Notes: generated by a model from the sequence alone, not told the origin. A stretch of DNA of 64,000 bases from a bacterium (GCA_029564595.1 JAKQPS010000113.1:32227-96226); one strand, 5' to 3'. Shown: positions 20,631 through 54,633, counted from the stretch's first letter. A program made the numbers and translations.

Positions 20631-20666
20631 GCGTTGCACATCGTCGCAAAGATTCTTTCTTACTCA

Positions 20667-20808
20667 TCGTTATCCGTCCACTAATATGCACTATCGTTGC
20701 CAAGGTCGTTACTCATCATTGCCAAGACCGTTACTCATCGTTGCCCGCCCACTAATATCCACTATCGTTGCCAAGTCCGTTACACATCGTTGCCAAGGTC
20801 GTTATTCA
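20667..20808. repeat. 2 x 71 bp tandem repeat made of three 22-27 bp sub-repeats (TCGTTGCCAAGGTCGTTACTCA type), iteron-like
   Basis: Seen directly. Units at 20667, 20694, 20716, 20738, 20765, 20787. The overlapping ORF 20602..20994 simply translates the repeats. Confidence 0.8.
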
Positions 20809-20809
20809 T

Positions 20810-20901
20810 CGTTGCCAAGGTCTCCTTGGCAACGCAGAACCAATGACAATGAAAGCGGAGCTTCCGGCTCATCCGTTACCAAGGCAACCTTGGTAACGAT
20901 G
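20810..20901. repeat. Two REP-like palindromes (cgttgccaagg-tct-ccttggcaacg at 20810-20834; atccgttaccaagg-caa-ccttggtaacgatg at 20871-20901)
   Basis: Perfect 11-14 bp inverted arms around a 3-bp spacer. Confidence 0.8.
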
Positions 20902-20978
20902 AAAGAATTACTGTATTCTAGCATCAATCACGCATCCCCTGACAATTGCCGCATGCTAATAAGCGTTACCTTGTCATC

Positions 20979-22145
20979 TTACGAAGATGATTGATTGCGT
21001 TTTATCCATCCATATCCATGATTTTTGCTGATACTATTTGCGACATCCAGTATAATGCGTAAGTCTGTTGTAGGATAATTATTCATCAATTCTACGATTG
21101 GAACACATGTCTGCTTACTATCATCCGTGTTTAATATACTATCAGTAGAAACATCGATTGTATTCTGTTCATAATTTCTTAAAAACCAATTCTCCATTAC
21201 TAACCTCAACATTTGATTTTCAAACAGATATTTTATCCTATCATTTTTTGATATCGTATTATCCATCTTCAGCGCTTCTACGATTTTGCTTTGAGATTGG
21301 TCATCAAGTCCAACACTAGTGTGTTTTGTGATACCCCTAATAAAATATTCGTATGAGACAAAATGAATATCCTTGCCAGTTTCTGCTTTATACTCTTTAC
21401 GAAGTTCAGGTCTTGGACCGATTCTTTGTCCATTGATAAGTAGCCACCAGTCTTCTTTGTCATCTTGAGTGACAAATAATGTATGCTGGTTACGCTTACC
21501 CATTTCATTTATTGTTTGTTTCCAAATTAAGAAATCTCCATATTTATTTTCTCCTTCTTTATTATTGTCACAATAACCGGGCGGCGTTTTTTTAGAATAT
21601 CTACCATCTGCTTCTTTAAACAAATCTCTCAAATCATCGTCATTGAAATGTTGTCCGATACGACCTCGCATAATGCATATTATCCTGTCCAAATAAGGGT
21701 CTTTGTATCTTGATATAGGATATTTTTCAATGTCATCCTTAATTCTTTTTTTAGCTTCAGATAACACCTTCTCTATGTTTTTGTTTAACTCATCCCATTG
21801 TATTACCGAATTTGATCCTTGAGATCCATCAATACTGTTGATAATGTTTTTTAATACTACATCGATATCGTTAAAATATTTGCTAACTTTCTTTGCTTCC
21901 GTTATTTGATCGTCTATTAATTTAATCCGGGCATCGAAAAACTCCTTTGCAACCTGATGTGGCACCCATATCCTTCCTAATATCTTCTCGTTTTCAATTG
22001 TTTTTATAAGACCTTCCCTTTCTTTTGTTTGAAGCCGATAAATATTTAAGTAAATATTCGTATCAAATATTATAGTTCCATTGTTCCAAATATCTTTTAA
22101 CTCATCTTCTGAAAGCGGCCACAAATGCTTAAACTGGTCAGGCAT
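20979..22145 (-). CDS. PIN-like nuclease-domain protein (388 aa) on an AT-rich cassette
   Basis: N-terminal PIN-like acidic motifs (IIFDTNIYLN, YGDFLIWKQ, FVTQDDKEDWW). Gene GC about 33% against about 60% in the flanks. Confidence 0.55.
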   Translation of the reverse strand: MPDQFKHLWPLSEDELKDIWNNGTIIFDTNIYLNIYRLQTKEREGLIKTIENEKILGRIWVPHQVAKEFFDARIKLIDDQITEAKKVSKYFNDIDVVLKNIINSIDGSQGSNSVIQWDELNKNIEKVLSEAKKRIKDDIEKYPISRYKDPYLDRIICIMRGRIGQHFNDDDLRDLFKEADGRYSKKTPPGYCDNNKEGENKYGDFLIWKQTINEMGKRNQHTLFVTQDDKEDWWLLINGQRIGPRPELRKEYKAETGKDIHFVSYEYFIRGITKHTSVGLDDQSQSKIVEALKMDNTISKNDRIKYLFENQMLRLVMENWFLRNYEQNTIDVSTDSILNTDDSKQTCVPIVELMNNYPTTDLRIILDVANSISKNHGYGWIKRNQSSS

Positions 22146-22325: not shown

Positions 22326-22355
22326 ATCGTTACCAAGGTGACCTTGGTAACGATG
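22326..22355. repeat. REP-like palindrome catcgttaccaagg-tga-ccttggtaacgatg (partner of the 20871-20901 copy)
   Basis: Perfect 14-bp arms. Closes the AT-rich cassette. Confidence 0.8.
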
Positions 22356-22439
22356 AAAATATTGTGTCGTTCATTGTGGCGGGTTCACGCTCCCGTGCGT
22401 GGCTTTCAAACCCGGTGCGGGCGCGCGAAATAAAAGAAA

Positions 22440-28015: not shown

Positions 28016-29032
28016 ATGAAAGCGCTTGTCACTGGAGCAGACGGGCTTCTTGGAGGCAACCTAGTCCGGGAAATGATAGAAAGAGGAATCGAAGCGCGGG
28101 CGATAGTGCATCCGAAAAGCCTGTCTCGCACTCTCGACGGTCTTCCGATAGAGCGAATAACCGGAGACATCCTTGACGCCGGAGAGTTGGCAGAAGCGGC
28201 AAAGGGATGCGACGCGGTGTTCCATGTCGCGGCGTCCACCGCTCTCTGGCCGCCCAAGTCTCCCATAATCACCGCCGTGAATGTGGAAGGCACGCGGAAT
28301 ATGCTGGACGCGGCGGTCAAAGCGGGCGTGAAGAGGTTCGTCCATGTCGGTTCCGCCAGTTCGTTCGGGTATGGAACCAAAGAGCGGCCCGGAGACGAGT
28401 CGACTCCTTTTAAATACGCTGATTTCGGTCTAGCCTATTTTGATTCCAAGCTGGAAGCTCAAAGAATCGCGTTGAAGCACGCCGCCGACGGCAAGCTGGA
28501 CGTTGTGGTGGTGAATCCGACATTTATGATAGGCCCGTTCGATTCCGGCCCCAGTTCAGGGAAAATGATTTCTAAATTCGCCGAAATGAGGCCGCCGTTC
28601 TACCCGCCGGGAGGCCGCAACTTCATACACGCGCGAGACGCGGCAAAAGGAATGCTTGCGGCGTGCGAGCGAGGACGGACCGGGGAATGTTACCTTCTGG
28701 GCAACAGGAATATGGATATGAAGGAATTTTTCAGCGAGGTCGCGCGCGTGGCGGGCTTCAAGCCGCCCGCGCTTGAGATTCCCAAAGAGATAATGATGAT
28801 TGCCGGGGCCGCCGGATCGGCTATTAGCAACATAACCGGAAAGCAGCCTGAACTATCCTATGAAATGGCCCGCAGTTCGTGTGTCGGCGCGTATTATAGC
28901 GCCGCGAAGGCGGTCAGAGAGCTTGCCCTGCCGCAGACGCCGATAGAGACGGCGGTGGAGGAAGCGTACGAATGGCTCGCCGAAAACGGGCACATCAAGA
29001 GCGCGCGAGGTCGCGCCGGAAAGAGGCGATGA
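28016..29032 (+). CDS. NAD(P)-dependent epimerase/dehydratase-family oxidoreductase (extended SDR)
   Basis: Rossmann motif VTGADGLLGGNL. Catalytic Y..K region. Confidence 0.75.
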   Translation: MKALVTGADGLLGGNLVREMIERGIEARAIVHPKSLSRTLDGLPIERITGDILDAGELAEAAKGCDAVFHVAASTALWPPKSPIITAVNVEGTRNMLDAAVKAGVKRFVHVGSASSFGYGTKERPGDESTPFKYADFGLAYFDSKLEAQRIALKHAADGKLDVVVVNPTFMIGPFDSGPSSGKMISKFAEMRPPFYPPGGRNFIHARDAAKGMLAACERGRTGECYLLGNRNMDMKEFFSEVARVAGFKPPALEIPKEIMMIAGAAGSAISNITGKQPELSYEMARSSCVGAYYSAAKAVRELALPQTPIETAVEEAYEWLAENGHIKSARGRAGKRR

Positions 29033-29850
29033 GCATGGCCGCTAAACATTTCGAGAACAAGACCGCTCTCATAACCGGGGGCAGCCGGGGGATAGGGCTT
29101 GCGGTGGCGCGCGAACTGTCGCGCAGAGGCGCCCGCTGCGCCATCGCCGCGCGCGGAGCCGAACGGCTCGAACGCGCCCGCGCCTCTCTCGCCTCAGACG
29201 GTTTCGACGTCCTCACTATTCAAGCAGACGTCGCGGACGCTGCGTCTTGCGCCGACATGGTCTCTCGCGCAGTCGCGGAGTTCGGGCGTCTGGACATCCT
29301 TGTAAACAACGCGGGCGTATCTATGCGCGCCAACCTCGAAGACCTCGACGCCGAAGCCTGCCGCTCGATGGTGGACATCAATCTGATGGGGTGCATATAT
29401 CCGACGCTCAGCGCGCTCGATCAACTGAAGAACAACAAAGGCAGTGTCGTCTTCACGTCCAGCATAGCGGGTCTGATAGGGCTGCCGACGGCGACGATAT
29501 ATTGCGCGACCAAGCACGCGCTTCGCGGATTCGCGGACGCGTTGAGGTGCGAGATCGGGCCGGACGGCGCGCATGTCGGCGTCGTCTATGTCGGGTTCAC
29601 TGAAAACGACCCTGAGAAGAAAGTGGTCAGCGCGGACGGAGGAGCCGTCCCGCCCGGCCCGGCGCACATGACACAGGAGCAAGTGGCGCGCGAGTTCGCC
29701 GAGCTAATCCGCCACCGGCGCTCCCGCGCCGTGCTTTCGCCAATCGGCAAATTGGCCGAGCTTGCCGGAAGGCTGTCTCCGGACATCGTCGGCGAAGCCA
29801 TCGTCTTCAGCCGCAAAACCAAACTCAACGAGCGCCTCGGCATATCCTGA
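29029..29850 (+). CDS. Classical short-chain dehydrogenase/reductase
   Basis: TGGSRGIGLAVA, NNAG, YCATK motifs. ATGA overlap with the upstream gene. Confidence 0.8.
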   Translation: MSMAAKHFENKTALITGGSRGIGLAVARELSRRGARCAIAARGAERLERARASLASDGFDVLTIQADVADAASCADMVSRAVAEFGRLDILVNNAGVSMRANLEDLDAEACRSMVDINLMGCIYPTLSALDQLKNNKGSVVFTSSIAGLIGLPTATIYCATKHALRGFADALRCEIGPDGAHVGVVYVGFTENDPEKKVVSADGGAVPPGPAHMTQEQVAREFAELIRHRRSRAVLSPIGKLAELAGRLSPDIVGEAIVFSRKTKLNERLGIS

Positions 29851-29950
29851 GATTTATGTTGCGCTGAAGCAATAATGCGCCGCTCATGGGCGCGGCTGAT
29901 GTTAGCAGGTAAAACGGTTGCCGCTTTCGCGGGAATGACGGCAATAAATA

Positions 29951-30133
29951 AACCCGAATCCGTCATTAGGATTCGGGAGCGATTGTTTAGAGCGGATGAA
30001 ATGCTAGGCGCAAGGCGCATTTTTGCAGTGAATAGAACTTATTGTTCATGAACAAAAAAATGTGGCGGCAACGAAGCAGTTCGCCGCTATGAAAATCGCC
30101 CCGGTTCGTCGGCTCTATCGACGAATCCGGGAT
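29951..30133 (-). repeat. Copy C (short variant, reverse orientation) of the structured intergenic repeat family
   Basis: The reverse complement aligns with the 5' and 3' modules of copies A and B (cccggattcgtcgatagagccgacgaaccggggcgattttcatagcggcgaac...; ...aatgcgcc..catccgctctaaacaatcgct..gaatcctaatgacggattcggg). Confidence 0.75.
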
Positions 30134-30216
30134 AAATGTTGCTTTTTTCTCTCTTGGCAGTATTCGGTTTAACGCGCAGTTTGAAATAATCCAGCGAAAT
30201 CAATGCCGTTTCATTA

Positions 30217-31125
30217 TTAACGTTCATCGAAACGGATTATCGTTTCCATCCCGTTGTGATCGCTAATCAGTCGTCCCGAAACCAACTCGTCGAACACCCA
30301 CCGCGCTGATTCTATGGTTATTTTCCAGTCCGACCCGTTCTCGTCGTAGAAAAGATGGTCCACATGGTCGAGATGAGCGCTGGCCATTTTTAGTTTTGAA
30401 TTCTGAAGGAGCCAATCGCAATCCTCTTCACCGGGATTGCAGTTGAAATCGCCGTGGATGATAACCGGCCGCCGCGTACCGCCTGAAAACCTCTCGACCG
30501 CCGCCATCATCTGCTTATAGTTCTCGATTCTCGGCTTGGGACCGAATCCCGCCTGCGCGTGCAGCGTGTAAATGTCTATCTCCAGCCCGCCGGGCAGAAC
30601 CGTGGTCGCGCCGAGAAATCCTTTATGGCTGAAAGCGTCAACTCCGAACTGCTCTTTCCATCTCTCGAAAACCGACCTCTGTATTTCGCCTTTTGAGAAA
30701 ATGTACAATCCGCTTCCTGTCGGGGACGTCGGCGAGCCTGTCCCCATGGCCACGAAATGGTTTTTCAGCCTGCGCGGAAAAACCTCTCTCTCCGGAATGA
30801 ACGCTTCCTGCAGCCCTATGACATCATAGTCTTTGATGAGCTTGGCGATGAGCGTGGCCCTTTTTTCCGTCGGAACCAGCAGGTTGCGGTCAAATGTTAT
30901 GAAATCCGGGAGCATACAGACGTTGTACGTCAGGAATTTCAAAGTGTGAGATTTCTTCGGCGACTGTTCCGCTGTTTCAGACGCCGACGCCGTCAACGGA
31001 ACCAAAACCGCCATTGCCGTAAAAACAGCGGAAACAATCAAAGCGATGCCATGTCTTTTCAGATTGGAGTTCAAGAGTCGGCAACCATCCTTTTCAACCA
31101 TGCGCTTCGGCGATGGCGATTTCAT
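30217..31125 (-). CDS. Secreted endonuclease/exonuclease/phosphatase (EEP)-family protein (sphingomyelinase-like)
   Basis: Signal peptide. EEP motifs YNVCMLP, GLQE, IIHGDFN, SDHNG. Confidence 0.65.
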   Translation of the reverse strand: MKSPSPKRMVEKDGCRLLNSNLKRHGIALIVSAVFTAMAVLVPLTASASETAEQSPKKSHTLKFLTYNVCMLPDFITFDRNLLVPTEKRATLIAKLIKDYDVIGLQEAFIPEREVFPRRLKNHFVAMGTGSPTSPTGSGLYIFSKGEIQRSVFERWKEQFGVDAFSHKGFLGATTVLPGGLEIDIYTLHAQAGFGPKPRIENYKQMMAAVERFSGGTRRPVIIHGDFNCNPGEEDCDWLLQNSKLKMASAHLDHVDHLFYDENGSDWKITIESARWVFDELVSGRLISDHNGMETIIRFDER

Positions 31126-37936: not shown

Positions 37937-38962
37937 ATGATTATCATTCTTTCTCACAAGGCAACGGACAACAACAAGAATTCGGTGATCGACCGGCTCA
38001 AAAAAATGGGCTACAAAGTCGATATCTCAGAAGGCAAAGAGCGTACCCTTATCGGCGCGGTCGGCTCGAACGTGGAGAACAAGAACGAGGTCATGGCGCA
38101 ATTCATGTCTTTGCCCTTCGTGGAAAACGTCGTGCCGATTCTCAAGCCGTACAAAATGGTGAGCCGGGAAATAAGGGAGCGTTCCGTTATCAAGGTGAGG
38201 GACGGGATAGAAATCGGCGGAAAAGAGATAATGCTGATGGCGGGGCCGTGCGCGGTGGAAGGCGAAGCGCTGATGATAGAGTGCGCTCACATGCTCAAAG
38301 CCGCCGGGGTAAAAATCCTCAGGGGCGGCGCGTACAAACCCCGCACTTCCCCGTACAGCTTTCAGGGCTACGAGGAGAAGGGATTGAAGATGCTGGCAAA
38401 AGCGAGCGAGGAAACCGGGCTGGCTATTATCACCGAAGTCATTCAGGGGCGGGACGTGAAAAAAGTCGCCAACTACGCTGACATACTGCAAATCGGGGCG
38501 CGCAACATGCAGAACTTTAATCTGCTCAAGGAGTGCGGCAAAGTGGATAAACCGGTGCTGCTGAAGCGCGGGTTGTCGGCGACAATCGAGGAATGGCTGC
38601 TGGCCGCCGAATACATCGTCAAAGAAGGCAACCCGAAGGTGATGCTGTGCGAACGCGGGATAAGGACTTTCGAGACTTATACGAGGAACACGCTGGATTT
38701 GAACGCGGTGGCGGCGGCGAAATCGCTCACGCATCTGCCGGTGGTCGCCGATCCGAGCCATGGAACGGGACGCTGGGAGCTTGTGTCGCCTATGGCAAAA
38801 GCCTCCGTCGCGGCGGGCGCGGACGCTCTTATAATTGAAGTCCACCCCCGCCCGGAAGAGGCTTTCAGCGACGGACAGCAGACGCTTAACTTCAAACATT
38901 TCAAACAGATGAAAAAAGAGTTGAAACCTGTGGCGGCGGCCGTCGGAAGAACGCTAAAATAG
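37937..38962 (+). CDS. 3-deoxy-7-phosphoheptulonate (DAHP) synthase, class I-beta with N-terminal regulatory domain
   Basis: Roughly 75-aa N-terminal ferredoxin-like/ACT-like domain, then the KDO8PS/DAHPS I-beta barrel ([25 protein letters not shown]). Confidence 0.85.
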
Positions 38963-38991
38963 GTTTGCTTTCGCGGGCTAACCGGCATTAT

Positions 38992-39215
38992 CCCGGATTC
39001 GTCGGTAGAGCCGACGAATCCTGTGCGATTTAGATAGCGGCGAACTGATTCGTTGCCGCCACATTCTTAGTTCAGTAGGGTCGCGGTTTCCGCGCCCAAT
39101 GACTACGACAATTTGGGGCGGGGCAACCCCGCCCCTACTTCAGAAATGCGCGTTGAGCTTTGCATTTCATCTGATCTGAATAATCGCTCCAGAATCATAA
39201 TGAAGGATTCAGGAT
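38992..39215 (+). repeat. Copy A of the structured intergenic repeat family (about 224 nt)
   Basis: Hairpins gattcgtcgg-tagag-ccgacgaatc, ggcgcgg-ttt-ccgcgcc, ggggcgggg-caa-ccccgcccc, gaatc-N9-gattc. Homologous to 53704-53926. Confidence 0.75.
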
Positions 39216-39231
39216 TTCCCACCAATGCGGG

Positions 39232-40374
39232 CTAAAACGCGAACTCGGCGTATTCGTATTCGCAAGGGTGTCCGTAAAGGACTTTGAATTTTTTCGACGC
39301 CGGATAGAGTATCACGGACAATGTGGTGCAGAAATAATCGCTGTGCCTGCACACCGTGTTGTCCGAGCCGATGCCGTCCGCGCCGTGGTCTGAAAAAATC
39401 CTGATAAGGTCTTCCTCAGAAAACTTCTGTTGCTTGGAGAGAAGTTCCTCAAGCCGGGCTAGCCTGACTTCGGAGGACTCTCTGCATCTCTTGCCGCGAA
39501 GAGCCGGCACGTTGGTCCTCGAATATACGGCGGACGGCGGAACGTCAACTTTCGCGAGCCTTTCAGTCAGATAGTGGTTCGTGTGGGCAATGACGCCTTC
39601 CTTCGGCTTACGCTCATCCACCATAGTCTTCGAGATTTCGACCGAGCGCAGGTCGCCCTGAGCATCGCAAATCATCCAAAGCGCGCACCCGTTATACTTG
39701 CTTTTTCTCAGAAACACTATCGCCTCGGCTGTTGTTTTGCACTTCTCTAGAGTGTCCTGAAGAGCCATAGTCATGGGAACCGAATTTGAGGAGGCGTCCT
39801 GCCCGTAGCCGTAGTTGTAAGTAATGGAAAGACCATGCTCGTTAATAGAGTCGTGGCTGCCCGCCAGAGGGGCGTTAGTCGCTGCTAGAACGCGGTATCC
39901 GTCGCTCGGAACGTCCATGCGGACAAGATGTGTGGGGGAGAAAAATTCGGGATAGTCGAAATTTTTGATAATAATCGGCTCGCCGGATGCGGACCTTTCA
40001 GAGGCGACGGCCGCCGCGCTGCACGCGCCGCCTATAAAATGAGTCTTTGCCATCTCTATTTCCATCGACTGAAGGAAAATCATGTGCTTCATACCTTCGC
40101 CCGCGCCCTCTGCTATGCCTTCGAGCCGGGCGTGCTGACGAGGCGAATCCTTCTTGATTCCCGCCGCGAAATCTCCCCACATTTTCATTTTTGCCAGTTT
40201 GAGGAACAGCCCGGTCGGAAGAAAGAAAGGCTTGATGGCTTTTAACTCAGGAGAAGTCGCCAACATTGAATGGGAGTGTTTAATGATGTCCACGCAAGCG
40301 CGCCCCTGCTGGGCGCCCATTTCTTTATGCGAGCCTTTGAATATTTTTATTTGTATGTCCGACTTCTTTCTCAT
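39232..40374 (-). CDS. Peptidase C45 / acyl-CoA:6-aminopenicillanic-acid acyltransferase-family protein
   Basis: Ntn-hydrolase-like layout with a candidate nucleophile Cys in FIGGACSAAAV. Confidence 0.6.
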   Translation of the reverse strand: MRKKSDIQIKIFKGSHKEMGAQQGRACVDIIKHSHSMLATSPELKAIKPFFLPTGLFLKLAKMKMWGDFAAGIKKDSPRQHARLEGIAEGAGEGMKHMIFLQSMEIEMAKTHFIGGACSAAAVASERSASGEPIIIKNFDYPEFFSPTHLVRMDVPSDGYRVLAATNAPLAGSHDSINEHGLSITYNYGYGQDASSNSVPMTMALQDTLEKCKTTAEAIVFLRKSKYNGCALWMICDAQGDLRSVEISKTMVDERKPKEGVIAHTNHYLTERLAKVDVPPSAVYSRTNVPALRGKRCRESSEVRLARLEELLSKQQKFSEEDLIRIFSDHGADGIGSDNTVCRHSDYFCTTLSVILYPASKKFKVLYGHPCEYEYAEFAF

Positions 40375-52223: not shown

Positions 52224-53621
52224 ATGCCGCATCATGAACAAAAAGACGAACTGAGAGTCGATGAAAAATTCTATAATAAACTCGGCGTTGACGACGATAA
52301 AGCGCTTGCCAACATAGAGAGCGCGATTGAGTTGTATCAGGGCAAACACGACCGCGCCGGTAGAACCGACGCCGCCATAAATTTCGAAAAATCGCTCAGC
52401 ATACTGTCGGTGTCGTTCGTGAGGCTGTGTCAGGAAATCCTTCGCGCCACTGACGGAGCGTTCTCGCCCGAACAAAGGCTTTTTTTGAATTTCGGCGTGG
52501 TGGATCCGAGGCTTTTTTCGAGTTTGACCGTAATCGGAGACCTTGTGGCGGAGATAGATTCGCGTCAACCCTCCGAAAGATTCGAATCCTACTATATGGA
52601 TGAATGGCTTGAGAGAATAGCGCGCGGCGCTATTGCTCCCACTTCAGAGGCCGCCAAAGTCAAATCAAAGACAAAAAGTCAGGAAGTGGAAGACGCCCGG
52701 CGCGAAAAGAAAAGGAAACTTGAAATTGAGCTTGAGTCTCTTTCCGGAGAAGAGCTTGACGCGTTCGTGATATTCAAGGATTTATACGGAAACTATTACC
52801 CCGACGCCGACCAGAACGGCAAACTCAAGGAATTGGCAGATATAAGAAAAACCGTCTCTAATCTGGAGAGAATCATCAAAGAACAAAATGCCAAGATGGC
52901 GGAAATCGAGTCGCTTACGGTCAAGGAAACCGCCGGAGGCGGCACTATCGCTGAAAGCCGCCGCTCGACAAGATTCGCCAGAATGCGAGAGGAATTCGAC
53001 ATCCTAGTGACCGTGATGAGAAGCTGCGCGGCTAGAGGCGGTCTTGTGAAAAACACTCCCGCTCTCATAGATAAATGGATTCCTATGGACTCCCGCGTCA
53101 GCGTAAACACGATCGCTCACGTTGAGAGCAAATTCTCGGAGTTTGAAAGTCTTGATTACACCATTTTCACGGACGCGAAGGGCGCTCGCAAGGCTCCAAA
53201 AGTCCTTGTTCTACCGGGCGTCGGAGCGGGCATGGCATGGAAAGACCGCATTATGGTTTCGTTGTTCCCGCCTCCAGCCACTCAGCCGGACATCAGCCTC
53301 ATCAAGACCTTCGCCGGCTACCGCTGGCACATCGCCACTTCGTCTTTTAACTGGAAACACCTCCCCGGCGAACTCGGCAGCATGTATCAGCTTATTTACC
53401 CCGACCTGACATACAACAACCTCGAAAAATCTTTCACAGACGACTACGTGAACTGGATGACGAAAGAAGCTCAAGGGTTTCAGGTTCTTTCCGCTCAAAC
53501 CCGGATACTGTTCTGGAAGAAAATCCCCTTCCCCGCCGAATACAAGCGGAAGCTCTCCAAACGCGCTGCGGCCTATGCCAAGCTCTACGCCGAAGACCTC
53601 GCCCGCGGAATATCAAGCTAA
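52224..53621 (+). CDS. Hypothetical protein (465 aa, no recognised domain)
   Basis: Long ORF with coding-like composition and a coiled-coil middle section. No recognised motif. Confidence 0.45.
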   Translation: MPHHEQKDELRVDEKFYNKLGVDDDKALANIESAIELYQGKHDRAGRTDAAINFEKSLSILSVSFVRLCQEILRATDGAFSPEQRLFLNFGVVDPRLFSSLTVIGDLVAEIDSRQPSERFESYYMDEWLERIARGAIAPTSEAAKVKSKTKSQEVEDARREKKRKLEIELESLSGEELDAFVIFKDLYGNYYPDADQNGKLKELADIRKTVSNLERIIKEQNAKMAEIESLTVKETAGGGTIAESRRSTRFARMREEFDILVTVMRSCAARGGLVKNTPALIDKWIPMDSRVSVNTIAHVESKFSEFESLDYTIFTDAKGARKAPKVLVLPGVGAGMAWKDRIMVSLFPPPATQPDISLIKTFAGYRWHIATSSFNWKHLPGELGSMYQLIYPDLTYNNLEKSFTDDYVNWMTKEAQGFQVLSAQTRILFWKKIPFPAEYKRKLSKRAAAYAKLYAEDLARGISS

Positions 53622-53703
53622 ACAACAATGTTTTATCGCCCTGTTTAGCGGATGTTTTTGATTCGACCGGCTTTGTTCTTTAGTTGTATATACCTTCATT
53701 AAA

Positions 53704-53926
53704 CCCGAATTCGTCGATAGAACCGACGAACCGGGGCGATTTTCATAGCGGCGAACCGCTTCGTTCCCGCCTCGAAAATTTGTTCAATAGGGGCGCGGTT
53801 TCCGCGCCCGACAACTGCTGCGATTTGGGGCGGGGCAACCCCGCCTCTACTGCGAAATGCGCTTTGCGTTCCGCTTTTCATCCGCGCTGAACAATCGCTT
53901 TCGAATCCTGATTAAGGATTCGGATT
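53704..53926 (+). repeat. Copy B of the structured intergenic repeat family (about 223 nt)
   Basis: Collinear with copy A. Carries the same four hairpin modules with compensatory base differences. Confidence 0.75.
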
Positions 53927-54042
53927 AAAGCATAAAAAGCTGTGATATCCTGCCGGGTTCGCGCTGACGGAATGAAGGTGGATAAGAGCATCTCGCCGCT
54001 TGGAAGATACTGATTGCCGCGCGCCATTATTCCTATCTTATC

Positions 54043-54633
54043 TTAGCCGTTTGACATAAAAAAAGCCGAACTGCTGAGAGCGATCTTCGGGCGGTCCGTC
54101 AATTTGAAACCAGCCTCTTCGATTGTCTTTATCGTTTCATCGAATTGTCGCAAAGAAACATGAAACTTAGGCTCCATAATAAGGAATCCTGCTCCCGGCT
54201 TTAGACATGCCCGCAAACGGCTGAGAAATAGCGGCAGGTTATCCACCTCGTGAATAACCCAACTGGCGACCGCGAAATCAGCCTGAATAGGAAGCTCCGG
54301 CCCGTCTGAAGGCGCAAGCGCGGTTGTTATGCGGTCGCCCACGCCGGCCCGCGCGGCGCGTTTCGCAAGCACGTCCAGCATCGGCTGTTGTATGTCGCAA
54401 CTATAGACGCGTCCGCGCGGCCCCGCGACTTTCGCAATGGCTATTGAAAAAAAGCCCATGCCACATCCCAAGTCCAGAGAGACAGCTCCTTCATTGATAT
54501 ATGGACGGACTATCTGCTCAGGATTTTGGAAAAGCCGCCTCAGCGTGTTGTCGAAAAAATACGCGTTCCTCCACGGACACACACGATGACTGTCAACAGA
54601 CATAAATGTTTCCTCCGCATTCAAAACAACCAT
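54043..54633 (-). CDS. Class I SAM-dependent methyltransferase
   Basis: Motif I VSLDLGCGMGFF, post-I acidic residue, motif II context. Confidence 0.75.
   Translation of the reverse strand: MVVLNAEETFMSVDSHRVCPWRNAYFFDNTLRRLFQNPEQIVRPYINEGAVSLDLGCGMGFFSIAIAKVAGPRGRVYSCDIQQPMLDVLAKRAARAGVGDRITTALAPSDGPELPIQADFAVASWVIHEVDNLPLFLSRLRACLKPGAGFLIMEPKFHVSLRQFDETIKTIEEAGFKLTDRPKIALSSSAFFMSNG

Follow-up and report, generated by a model that had tools for sequence, protein, structure and literature searches.

Hairpin-rich intergenic repeats of uncultivated anaerobic-digester bacteria as copies of a previously undescribed miniature inverted-repeat transposable element family with 5-bp TTNAA target duplications

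Three related, hairpin-rich intergenic repeats, here called copies A, B and C, lie in the 64,000-nt stretch of bacterial DNA analysed here (GCA_029564595.1 JAKQPS010000113.1:32227-96226; hereafter the window), copy A being the one found in the region 38992-39215. We conclude with high confidence that these repeats are copies of a miniature inverted-repeat transposable element (MITE), of a previously undescribed family but of a well-known kind, and that they are not structured RNAs. MITEs are non-coding DNA transposons that are moved in trans by a transposase made elsewhere, and this identification follows from the joint occurrence of fixed ends, inverted repeats, a target-site duplication (TSD) of fixed length, many copies and insertion polymorphism. 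An original prediction made on the same DNA had named a MITE-like mobile repeat and a structured small RNA or terminator family as the two possibilities, and it is the former that the duplications, the terminal inverted repeats (TIRs), the empty sites and a census of the family uphold.

The ends of the element were defined from an alignment of 37 complete family copies (177-259 nt), each taken together with 40 nt of flank. In all 37 copies similarity begins at CCCGG and breaks off at GGG, giving sharp ends of the form 5'-CCCGGATTCG…CGGATTCGGG-3' (at greater length 5'-CCCGGATTCGTCGATAG … CTAATGACGGATTCGGG-3'). The 5 nt flanking the element on either side are identical in 24 of the 37 copies and match at four of five positions in 7 more; the mean flank match is 4.35, compared to 3.10±0.12 for permuted left/right pairings, with none of 10,000 permutations reaching the observed value, and the next 3 nt outward match at chance level. 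The duplication follows the consensus W-T-N-A-W (TTNAA), in which the second position is T and the fourth position is A in 35 of 37 copies each and the middle base is free. The TIRs are imperfect, with 13 of 17 positions shared between CCCGGATTCGTCGATAG and the reverse complement of the right end, CCCGAATCCGTCATTAG, and a second inverted-repeat block, G-GCGATT-TTCA (GCGATT/AATCGC), follows after a 7-nt offset. The outer 17-nt block and the inner GCGATT/AATCGC block make the whole element a foldback. Since the ends match again over G-GCGATT-TTCA, the long-range helix seen in RNA folds is the inner part of the TIRs; across the 37 copies the GCGATT/AATCGC helix is paired in 99.1% of cells, with zero double changes.

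Insertion polymorphism was evident from two reciprocal empty sites within one orthologous intergenic region of two metagenome-assembled genomes (MAGs), ADurb.Bin236 (locus L042) and UBA6099 (locus L028). L042 holds an element at 828-1007 between …CATTTTGAA and TTGAAAGCGCG…, with TTGAA on both sides (823-1012), and its empty counterpart in L028 (2580-2595) reads CATTTTGAAAGCGCG, with a single TTGAA (2586-2590). Conversely, L028 holds an element at 2147-2367 between …TTTCT and TTTATTGCCC…, flanked by TTTCT/TTTAT (2142-2372), and the empty counterpart in L042 (720-730) reads CTTTTTATTGCCC, with a single TTTAT (723-727). Two of the window's own copies are likewise absent from relatives: copy A is lacking beside a 96% identical DAHP synthase gene (L130-132), where gene order is kept and the 162-nt spacer holds a different 120-nt repeat instead, and copy C is lacking beside Exo_endo_phos genes of 97% (L153) and 84% (L152) identity. 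The comparison of orthologous intergenic regions proposed with the original prediction has thus yielded presence/absence differences, and such insertion polymorphisms are usable as strain markers in digester metagenomes.

Three copies in 64 kb had been taken to imply a dispersed family, and the census agrees with this. An exact search with the hairpin-1 pattern TTCGTCGNTAGANCCGACGAA of a set holding one genome per bacterial or archaeal species (185,579 species genomes, the window's own contig lying outside the set) returned 53 loci, 49 of which fall in three related MAGs, bacterium UBP15_UBA6099 (DIWT01), bacterium ADurb.Bin236 (MWCD01) and isolate USCA_metabat.19_sub (JAKQBV01); the other four are about the chance expectation for 19 specified bases. 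NCBI places the three hosts among unclassified or candidate-phylum bacteria, and their overlapping flanks are about 86-94% identical at the DNA level. A 20-mer from the 3' part of the element was found at 69 metagenome loci, several of them labelled as activated-sludge assemblies, and a profile of the family gave 142 matches, 103 of full length, in about 1 Mb of related DNA (the three MAGs together with digester and sludge metagenomes). The same profile had zero matches in IS1380 reference records, in viral contigs and in the loci of DAHP synthase and Exo_endo_phos relatives; in the viral contigs the hairpin-1 pattern also gave 0 matches, and none of the 5 matches to a 16-mer was a family member by nhmmer. 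Well over 100 sites in uncultivated bacteria of anaerobic digesters are occupied by the family, which is also a frequent cause of assembly breaks and explains many of the contig ends and NN gaps in the MAGs of this lineage. Copies at L015 (1401-1491) and L021 (336-532) are broken by NN, and many contigs terminate inside a copy, as seen in L057, L059, L013, L022, L023, L034, L036, L037 and L044.

Within the window, an nhmmer search with the profile of 37 members found exactly three copies (38992-39214/5 and 53704-53925/6 on the plus strand, 29951-30131 on the minus strand; E 1e-45 to 4e-63), the same three that direct and inverted repeat families join at 38992-39215, 53704-53926 and 29951-30133. 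They are collinear with a mean column identity of 81%, within the previously estimated range of about 75-85%, and a 21-nt core motif occurs three times in the window compared to 0.02 by chance. The copies had been placed correctly by the original prediction, except that its ends took in 2 nt of flank; the corrected ends, and the parts of copy A, are given in Table 1. Copy C had been described as a form with its central section deleted, which does not hold, as the short form to which it belongs is the majority type of the family and has a 21-nt centre of its own.

Table 1. Positions of the three MITE copies of the window, their TSDs, and the parts of copy A
Feature	Position	Strand	Description
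MITE copy A	38992..39213	+	222 nt, long type, two G+C-rich central hairpins
Left TSD, copy A	38987..38991	+	ATTAT
Right TSD, copy A	39214..39218	+	ATTTC
Left TIR and hairpin 1, copy A	38992..39021	+	CCCGGATTCGTCGG-TAGAG-CCGACGAATCC; left TIR is the first 17 nt
GCGATT, left inner subterminal block, copy A	39025..39030	+	pairs with AATCGC 39182-39187
Hairpin 2, copy A	39037..39059	+	GCGGCGAAC-tgattc-GTTGCCGC
Central G+C hairpin 1, copy A	39078..39097	+	GGGTCGCGG-TTT-CCGCGCCC; long type only
Central G+C hairpin 2, copy A	39115..39135	+	GGGGCGGGG-CAA-CCCCGCCCC; long type only
Hairpin AAATGCG…TGCATTT (helix 5), copy A	39144..39167	+	from fold and helix count
AATCGC, right inner subterminal block, copy A	39182..39187	+	pairs with GCGATT 39025-39030
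Terminal hairpin and right TIR, copy A	39189..39213	+	CCAGAATC-ataatgaag-GATTCAGG
MITE copy B	53704..53924	+	221 nt, long type
Left TSD, copy B	53699..53703	+	TTAAA; 5/5 match
Right TSD, copy B	53925..53929	+	TTAAA
MITE copy C	29953..30131	-	179 nt, short type, commonest in the family
5'-side TSD, copy C	30132..30136	-	TTTAT on the minus strand; 5/5 match
3'-side TSD, copy C	29948..29952	-	TTTAT on the minus strand

Each of the three copies occupies a gap between convergent genes, in keeping with the convergent or terminator-proximal location noted before. Copy A starts 30 nt past the stop of the DAHP synthase gene (37937-38962, plus strand) and stops 18 nt short of the end of an AAT-family gene (39232-40374, minus strand); the neighbours of copy B are an unnamed 465-aa gene (52224-53621, plus strand) and a methyltransferase gene (54043-54633, minus strand), and those of copy C a short-chain dehydrogenase gene (28972-29850, plus strand) and the Exo_endo_phos gene (30217-31125, minus strand). 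The DAHP synthase beside copy A was found in identical sequence on 12 contigs, six listed places coming from ENA, JGI, Logan and NCBI assemblies, and two contigs with the identical gene terminate within the repeat. Neither copy A nor copy B exceeds 87% identity to any other copy, and copy A is thus an old insertion, the duplication of which has decayed, as its left and right repeats agree at 3 of 5 positions only. Copy C shares 98.3% identity with a family member in MAG UBA6099 (L017 4514-4694) and is thus a young one. Two insertion ages are therefore seen within one window, the young copy C standing beside copies A and B, which are far from every other copy. For a check on horizontal transfer, in which host divergence would be set against MITE identity, there were no orthologous genes common to the window and the collected MAG loci.

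Between its conserved ends the element varies blockwise. The commonest type measures 179-183 nt (52 of 111 elements are 180-189 nt long), and its consensus of 179 nt reads CCCGGATTCGTCGATAGAGCCGACGAACCGGGGCGATTTTCATAGCGGCGAACTGCTTCGTTGCCGCC…TTGTTCATGAACC.TA.GTTCTATTCACTGCAAAAATGCGCCTTGCGCCTCGCATTTCATCCGCTCTGAACAATCGCTCCCGAATCCTAATGACGGATTCGGG. A subfamily of 197 nt has CTCACGCACAAAGCAAGTTTGTGCGTG in place of hairpin 2, the 222-224 nt type, to which copies A and B belong, carries two G+C hairpins, and larger forms reach 234-259 nt, so that the family as a whole spans 64 to about 260 nt. The four hairpin modules named in the original prediction are present, and to these are added the hairpins GCGGCGAAC…GTTGCCGC and AAATGCG…CGCATTT and the long-range GCGATT/AATCGC pairing that closes the centre. 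The two central G+C hairpins are largely confined to the family, with 22 of 25 occurrences of the first and 26 of 29 of the second lying within family copies. Coding capacity is absent: the longest stop-free stretch has a median of 54 codons, and the length variants (+16, +42 and others) break every frame. The internal hairpins are swappable modules between conserved ends. Minis of 64, 73 and 109 nt consist of little beyond the two terminal hairpins, and the flanking repeats are still present, TTAAT around the 64-nt mini (L004 7251-7314) and TTTAT around the 73-nt mini (L005 5726-5798). A solo hairpin 1 (CCCGGATTCGTCGATAGAGCCGACGAATCCGG) was also observed at L012 1014-1046. Together, the solo hairpin and the 64- and 73-nt minis with their 5-bp flanking repeats suggest that the two terminal hairpins are enough for transposition.

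In two MAGs, the elements L027 140-335 and L052 1247-1463 share flanks, the duplication TTCAA and orientation, and their centres are of the 181-nt and 202-nt type, respectively. A second orthologous insertion with a differing central module was found at L024 and L034. Gene conversion between copies, re-insertion or repeat collapse during metagenome assembly are possible sources of such differing centres at one site.

The hairpins invite the alternative that the repeats are structured RNAs (small RNAs, stabilisers in 3' untranslated regions, or terminators) that are selected for their structure and copied by duplication rather than by transposition. The copies do lie just past stop codons, and each of the three folds far better than its shuffles, with z-scores of -5.7, -5.0 and -5.2. 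In the 37-copy alignment, the five named helices are paired in 92.8% of cells, and six pairs show one double change each, compared to 2.9±1.2 in shuffles (13 of 500 reach the observed count). However, column shuffles are paired in 92.6% of cells (57 of 500 reach the observed value), the covariation score of 0.044 compares with 0.042 after shuffling (94 of 500), the RNAalifold covariation term is -0.03 kcal/mol, and departures from pairing are mostly plain mismatches and not compensations. Covariation across the family is thus at the level of the shuffled controls, and the proposed selection on structure is not borne out. The difference between gGtagaGc and gAtagaAc, previously offered as an example of compensation, falls at columns 16 and 21 of the alignment. 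Both columns are situated within the loop of hairpin 1 or next to it and do not pair with one another; the stem joins 15 to 23, 14 to 24, 13 to 25 and so on.

Neither did searches for RNA signals support such a role. No Rfam 15 family reached its gathering score anywhere in the window, and none matched 38900-39300, the surroundings of copy A, even at E<=1; a scan of 38800-39400 revealed no promoter-like site and no G+C hairpin followed by a T-run inside copy A. The T-rich tail behind some copies is the duplicated target. By crude open reading frame calls, 29 copies with two near neighbours lie in 15 convergent, 7 tandem antisense, 4 tandem sense and 3 divergent contexts; gene 3' ends are preferred and there is no strand preference. 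The orientation of the window's own three copies is uninformative, because an element between convergent genes runs in the same direction as one neighbour whichever way it lies. With covariation at shuffle level, no Rfam match and an unbiased orientation, and with the duplications and empty sites left unexplained by it, the RNA or terminator reading was rejected as very improbable. We take the hairpins to reflect the palindromic construction of the MITE, consisting of binding-site repeats and captured modules that are alike through recent copying, and the family is worth masking before small-RNA or terminator searches are made in this lineage.

Hairpins at both termini (CCCGGATTCGTCG/CGACGAACCGGG and CCCGAATCC/GGATTCGGG), as well as the solo hairpin 1 described above, would also be expected of a REP/BIME-type or IS200/IS605-derived palindrome handled as single-stranded hairpins by a Y1/HUH enzyme (RAYT or TnpA). 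However, IS200/IS605 and REP elements are not known to duplicate their target, and their insertions lie beside one fixed tetra- or pentanucleotide, whereas the duplication found here is of 5 bp with a variable middle base and the empty sites keep a single copy of it, and we rejected this origin as having next to no probability. The statement that the repeats are not REP, ERIC, BOX or Correia elements proved correct. Like the MITE, REP/BIME, ERIC and BOX elements are intergenic and palindromic, are often situated in convergent gaps and can fold into stable hairpins when read-through transcripts include them, but they are without TSDs or TIRs of this kind, and the MITE shares no sequence similarity with them and has no Rfam match.

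The closest likeness is to other bacterial MITEs, such as Correia of Neisseria, RUP of Streptococcus pneumoniae and Nezha of cyanobacteria, which are also small, non-coding, multi-copy and intergenic foldbacks with TIRs and a TSD, with length subfamilies and with presence/absence differences between relatives. Their sequences are unrelated to the present family, which differs further in its candidate-phylum host, its exchangeable hairpin modules and its 5-bp TTNAA duplication. Correia and RUP duplicate a TA target, and Correia has 26-bp terminal repeats; with a 5-bp W-T-N-A-W duplication and ends reading CCCGGATTCG, the present element was not assigned to Correia. The Tn3 repeat begins GGGG (GGGGTCTGACGCTCAG…), a sequence that is widespread on plasmids, and the MITE, which begins CCCG at both ends, has no similarity to it. 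A Tn3-derived inverted-repeat miniature element (TIME), moved by a Tn3-family transposase, would likewise be non-autonomous and would account for A+T-rich insertion with 5- or 6-bp duplications, but TIMEs have 38-bp inverted repeats conserved with Tn3-family transposons (PMC4133298), in contrast to the imperfect, approximately 17-nt CCCG outer repeat of the MITE, and this origin was rejected as extremely improbable.

As for the enzyme that moves the MITE, the balance is modestly in favour of an IS1380-family DDE transposase, judging from the terminal bases and the length of the duplication. IS1380 is the family that ISfinder lists with CC ends and repeats of 4-5 bp. In annotated records of the family the ends were CCTAGATTCTACGT / CCTAAATTCCACGT for ISEcp1, CCTGAATAATTCATAC for IS1678 and ISSsu5, CCTGAATTATTCATAC for a Ligilactobacillus member, CCCACATTTCCCAAGT / CCTGCATTCCCCAAGT (also given as CCCACATTTCCC/CCTGCATTCCCC) for an IS1247-like element, defined from Klebsiella record L143, and CCTGGATTTCTCAT / CCCGGATTTCTCAT for an insertion sequence (IS) of a Marinobacter plasmid; the repeat finder gave no clear ends for ISAzs3, IS1380A, a Bradyrhizobium IS and a second IS1247 record (Thioclava, L145). 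All six IS1380 members with definable ends begin CC-Y-N-N-A-T, in a comparison that covers IS1380 members only, and the MITE ends (CCCGGATTCGTCGAT / CCCGAATCCGTCATT) fit this pattern. The first eight bases of the MITE equal those of the Marinobacter right end CCCGGATTTCTCAT (shared CCCGGATT). IS1678 is flanked by the 5-bp repeat GATAG/GATAG, and 5-bp direct repeats at A+T-rich sites are described for ISEcp1 (PMC7527135). As a separate observation, the IS1247-like element of the Klebsiella aerogenes plasmid (L143 539-548) has TTTAA directly before its CCC left end, its other flank being without a repeat. The IS1380 elements thus resemble the MITE in their ends, their 5-bp duplications (IS1678, ISEcp1) and their A+T-rich targets, but they measure about 1.6 kb and carry a transposase, whereas the MITE has 0.06-0.26 kb and none, and the strong palindromic TTNAA consensus of the MITE was not seen in the IS1380 members checked.

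IS1380 transposases are used as the prokaryotic outgroup of piggyBac, which inserts at TTAA, begins CCC and has a transposase superfamily related to IS1380 (PMC10813416). A TTNAA target together with CCC…GGG ends may therefore be seen as a close formal parallel to piggyBac, from which the MITE differs in that piggyBac is eukaryotic and duplicates the 4 bp TTAA and not the 5 bp TTNAA; a piggyBac-like enzyme was not identified here. In the mechanism that we propose, the CCCGRATYCG ends would be held by a dimer of an IS1380-type DDE transposase, a bacterial relative of piggyBac, which would cut the palindromic TTNAA target with a 5-nt stagger. Copies would build up at the 3' ends of convergent genes, presumably because insertion does least harm there, and any effect of the copies on transcript ends would be a by-product. 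Taken as a whole, the reading that the family is the footprint of an undescribed, TTNAA-specific bacterial piggyBac relative, an IS1380-superfamily transposase with CCCGRATYCG ends and a 5-nt stagger, is put forward tentatively and at somewhat less than an even chance. Its part concerning recent activity derives from the 98% identity between a window copy and one in another MAG, on account of which the element may lately have passed from one species to another; the host might also use the exchangeable hairpin modules as 3'-end structures.

Several observations weigh against the MITE reading or the proposed enzyme. Six of the 37 duplications have decayed to 3/5 matches or fewer and the inverted repeats are imperfect, the module differences at the orthologous insertions (L027/L052 and L024/L034) are not explained by simple vertical inheritance, the empty sites at window copies A and C are not base-precise because the spacers have diverged too far, and every comparison genome is a metagenome assembly. 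Concerning the enzyme, the collected loci contain no pair of 5' and 3' end modules 400-4000 nt apart and no TIR pair with matching TSDs 600-4000 nt apart beyond chance, and tblastn with nine diverse IS1380 transposases found nothing at E<=0.1 in the roughly 1.1 Mb of host DNA sampled, which represents only part of each genome; tblastn with ISEcp1 was likewise negative. The TTNAA preference was moreover not seen in the IS1380 members checked (GATAG for IS1678), and the link to IS1380 consists of only about 8-10 terminal bases and the length of the duplication. These last points speak for the main rival, namely that the MITE is moved by another DDE family with 4-6 bp duplications (IS1634, ISH3 or the ISAba11 group of IS701) or by an undescribed family, which we consider a serious possibility, although on the unlikely side, given that CC-Y-N-N-A-T is common to the IS1380 members and the MITE and that the Marinobacter IS shares CCCGGATT.

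Candidate remnants of an autonomous partner were considered and discarded. The orphan ends at L004, L012, L015, L043, L090, L111, L120 and L124 are truncated, decayed or assembly-gapped copies, and the long copies at L016 (483 nt) and L035 (342 nt) owe their size to small repeats of two other families that have inserted into them. A search of the available literature found no description of a MITE linked to IS1380 and nothing on these organisms. For transposon biology, the family, with its defined ends, 5-bp TTNAA target and minimal 64-nt derivatives, provides a clean and abundant substrate for seeking the cognate transposase; should the enzyme prove IS1380-like, bacteria would possess a sequence-specific equivalent of the piggyBac enzymes, which are specific for TTAA. 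No new category of system is opened by the family.

Other repeats were noticed in the course of the analysis. A second small family of about 120 nt with ends TATAC…GTATA gave 20 blastn matches in the collected loci and none in the window; copies lie at L028 2385-2505, L035 2068-2187 (nested in a MITE) and L130 3544-3663, the last in the DAHP-synthase/AAT spacer of a close relative, where the window has copy A. A third family, which measures about 258 nt, is bounded by terminal repeats CCTGATTCCCCCTGAAACTCATAT and contains a long palindrome, occurs at L016 4712-4975 and also at L087, L075, L103 and L027; its nesting inside a MITE accounts for the 483-nt length of the L016 copy. Finally, at 20660-20910 and 22328-22363 the window itself holds a tandem run of some six 22-nt units (ATCGTTGCCAAGGTCGTTACTC) accompanied by the perfect palindromes CGTTGCCAAGG…CCTTGGCAACG and CGTTACCAAGGCAACCTTGGTAACG, the latter recurring 1.45 kb away with a variant centre (CGTTACCAAGGTGACCTTGGTAACG). 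The stretch is low in GC (0.46) and adjoins a PIN_8-domain gene (20979-22145, minus strand), and the repeats look like an array of protein-binding sites.

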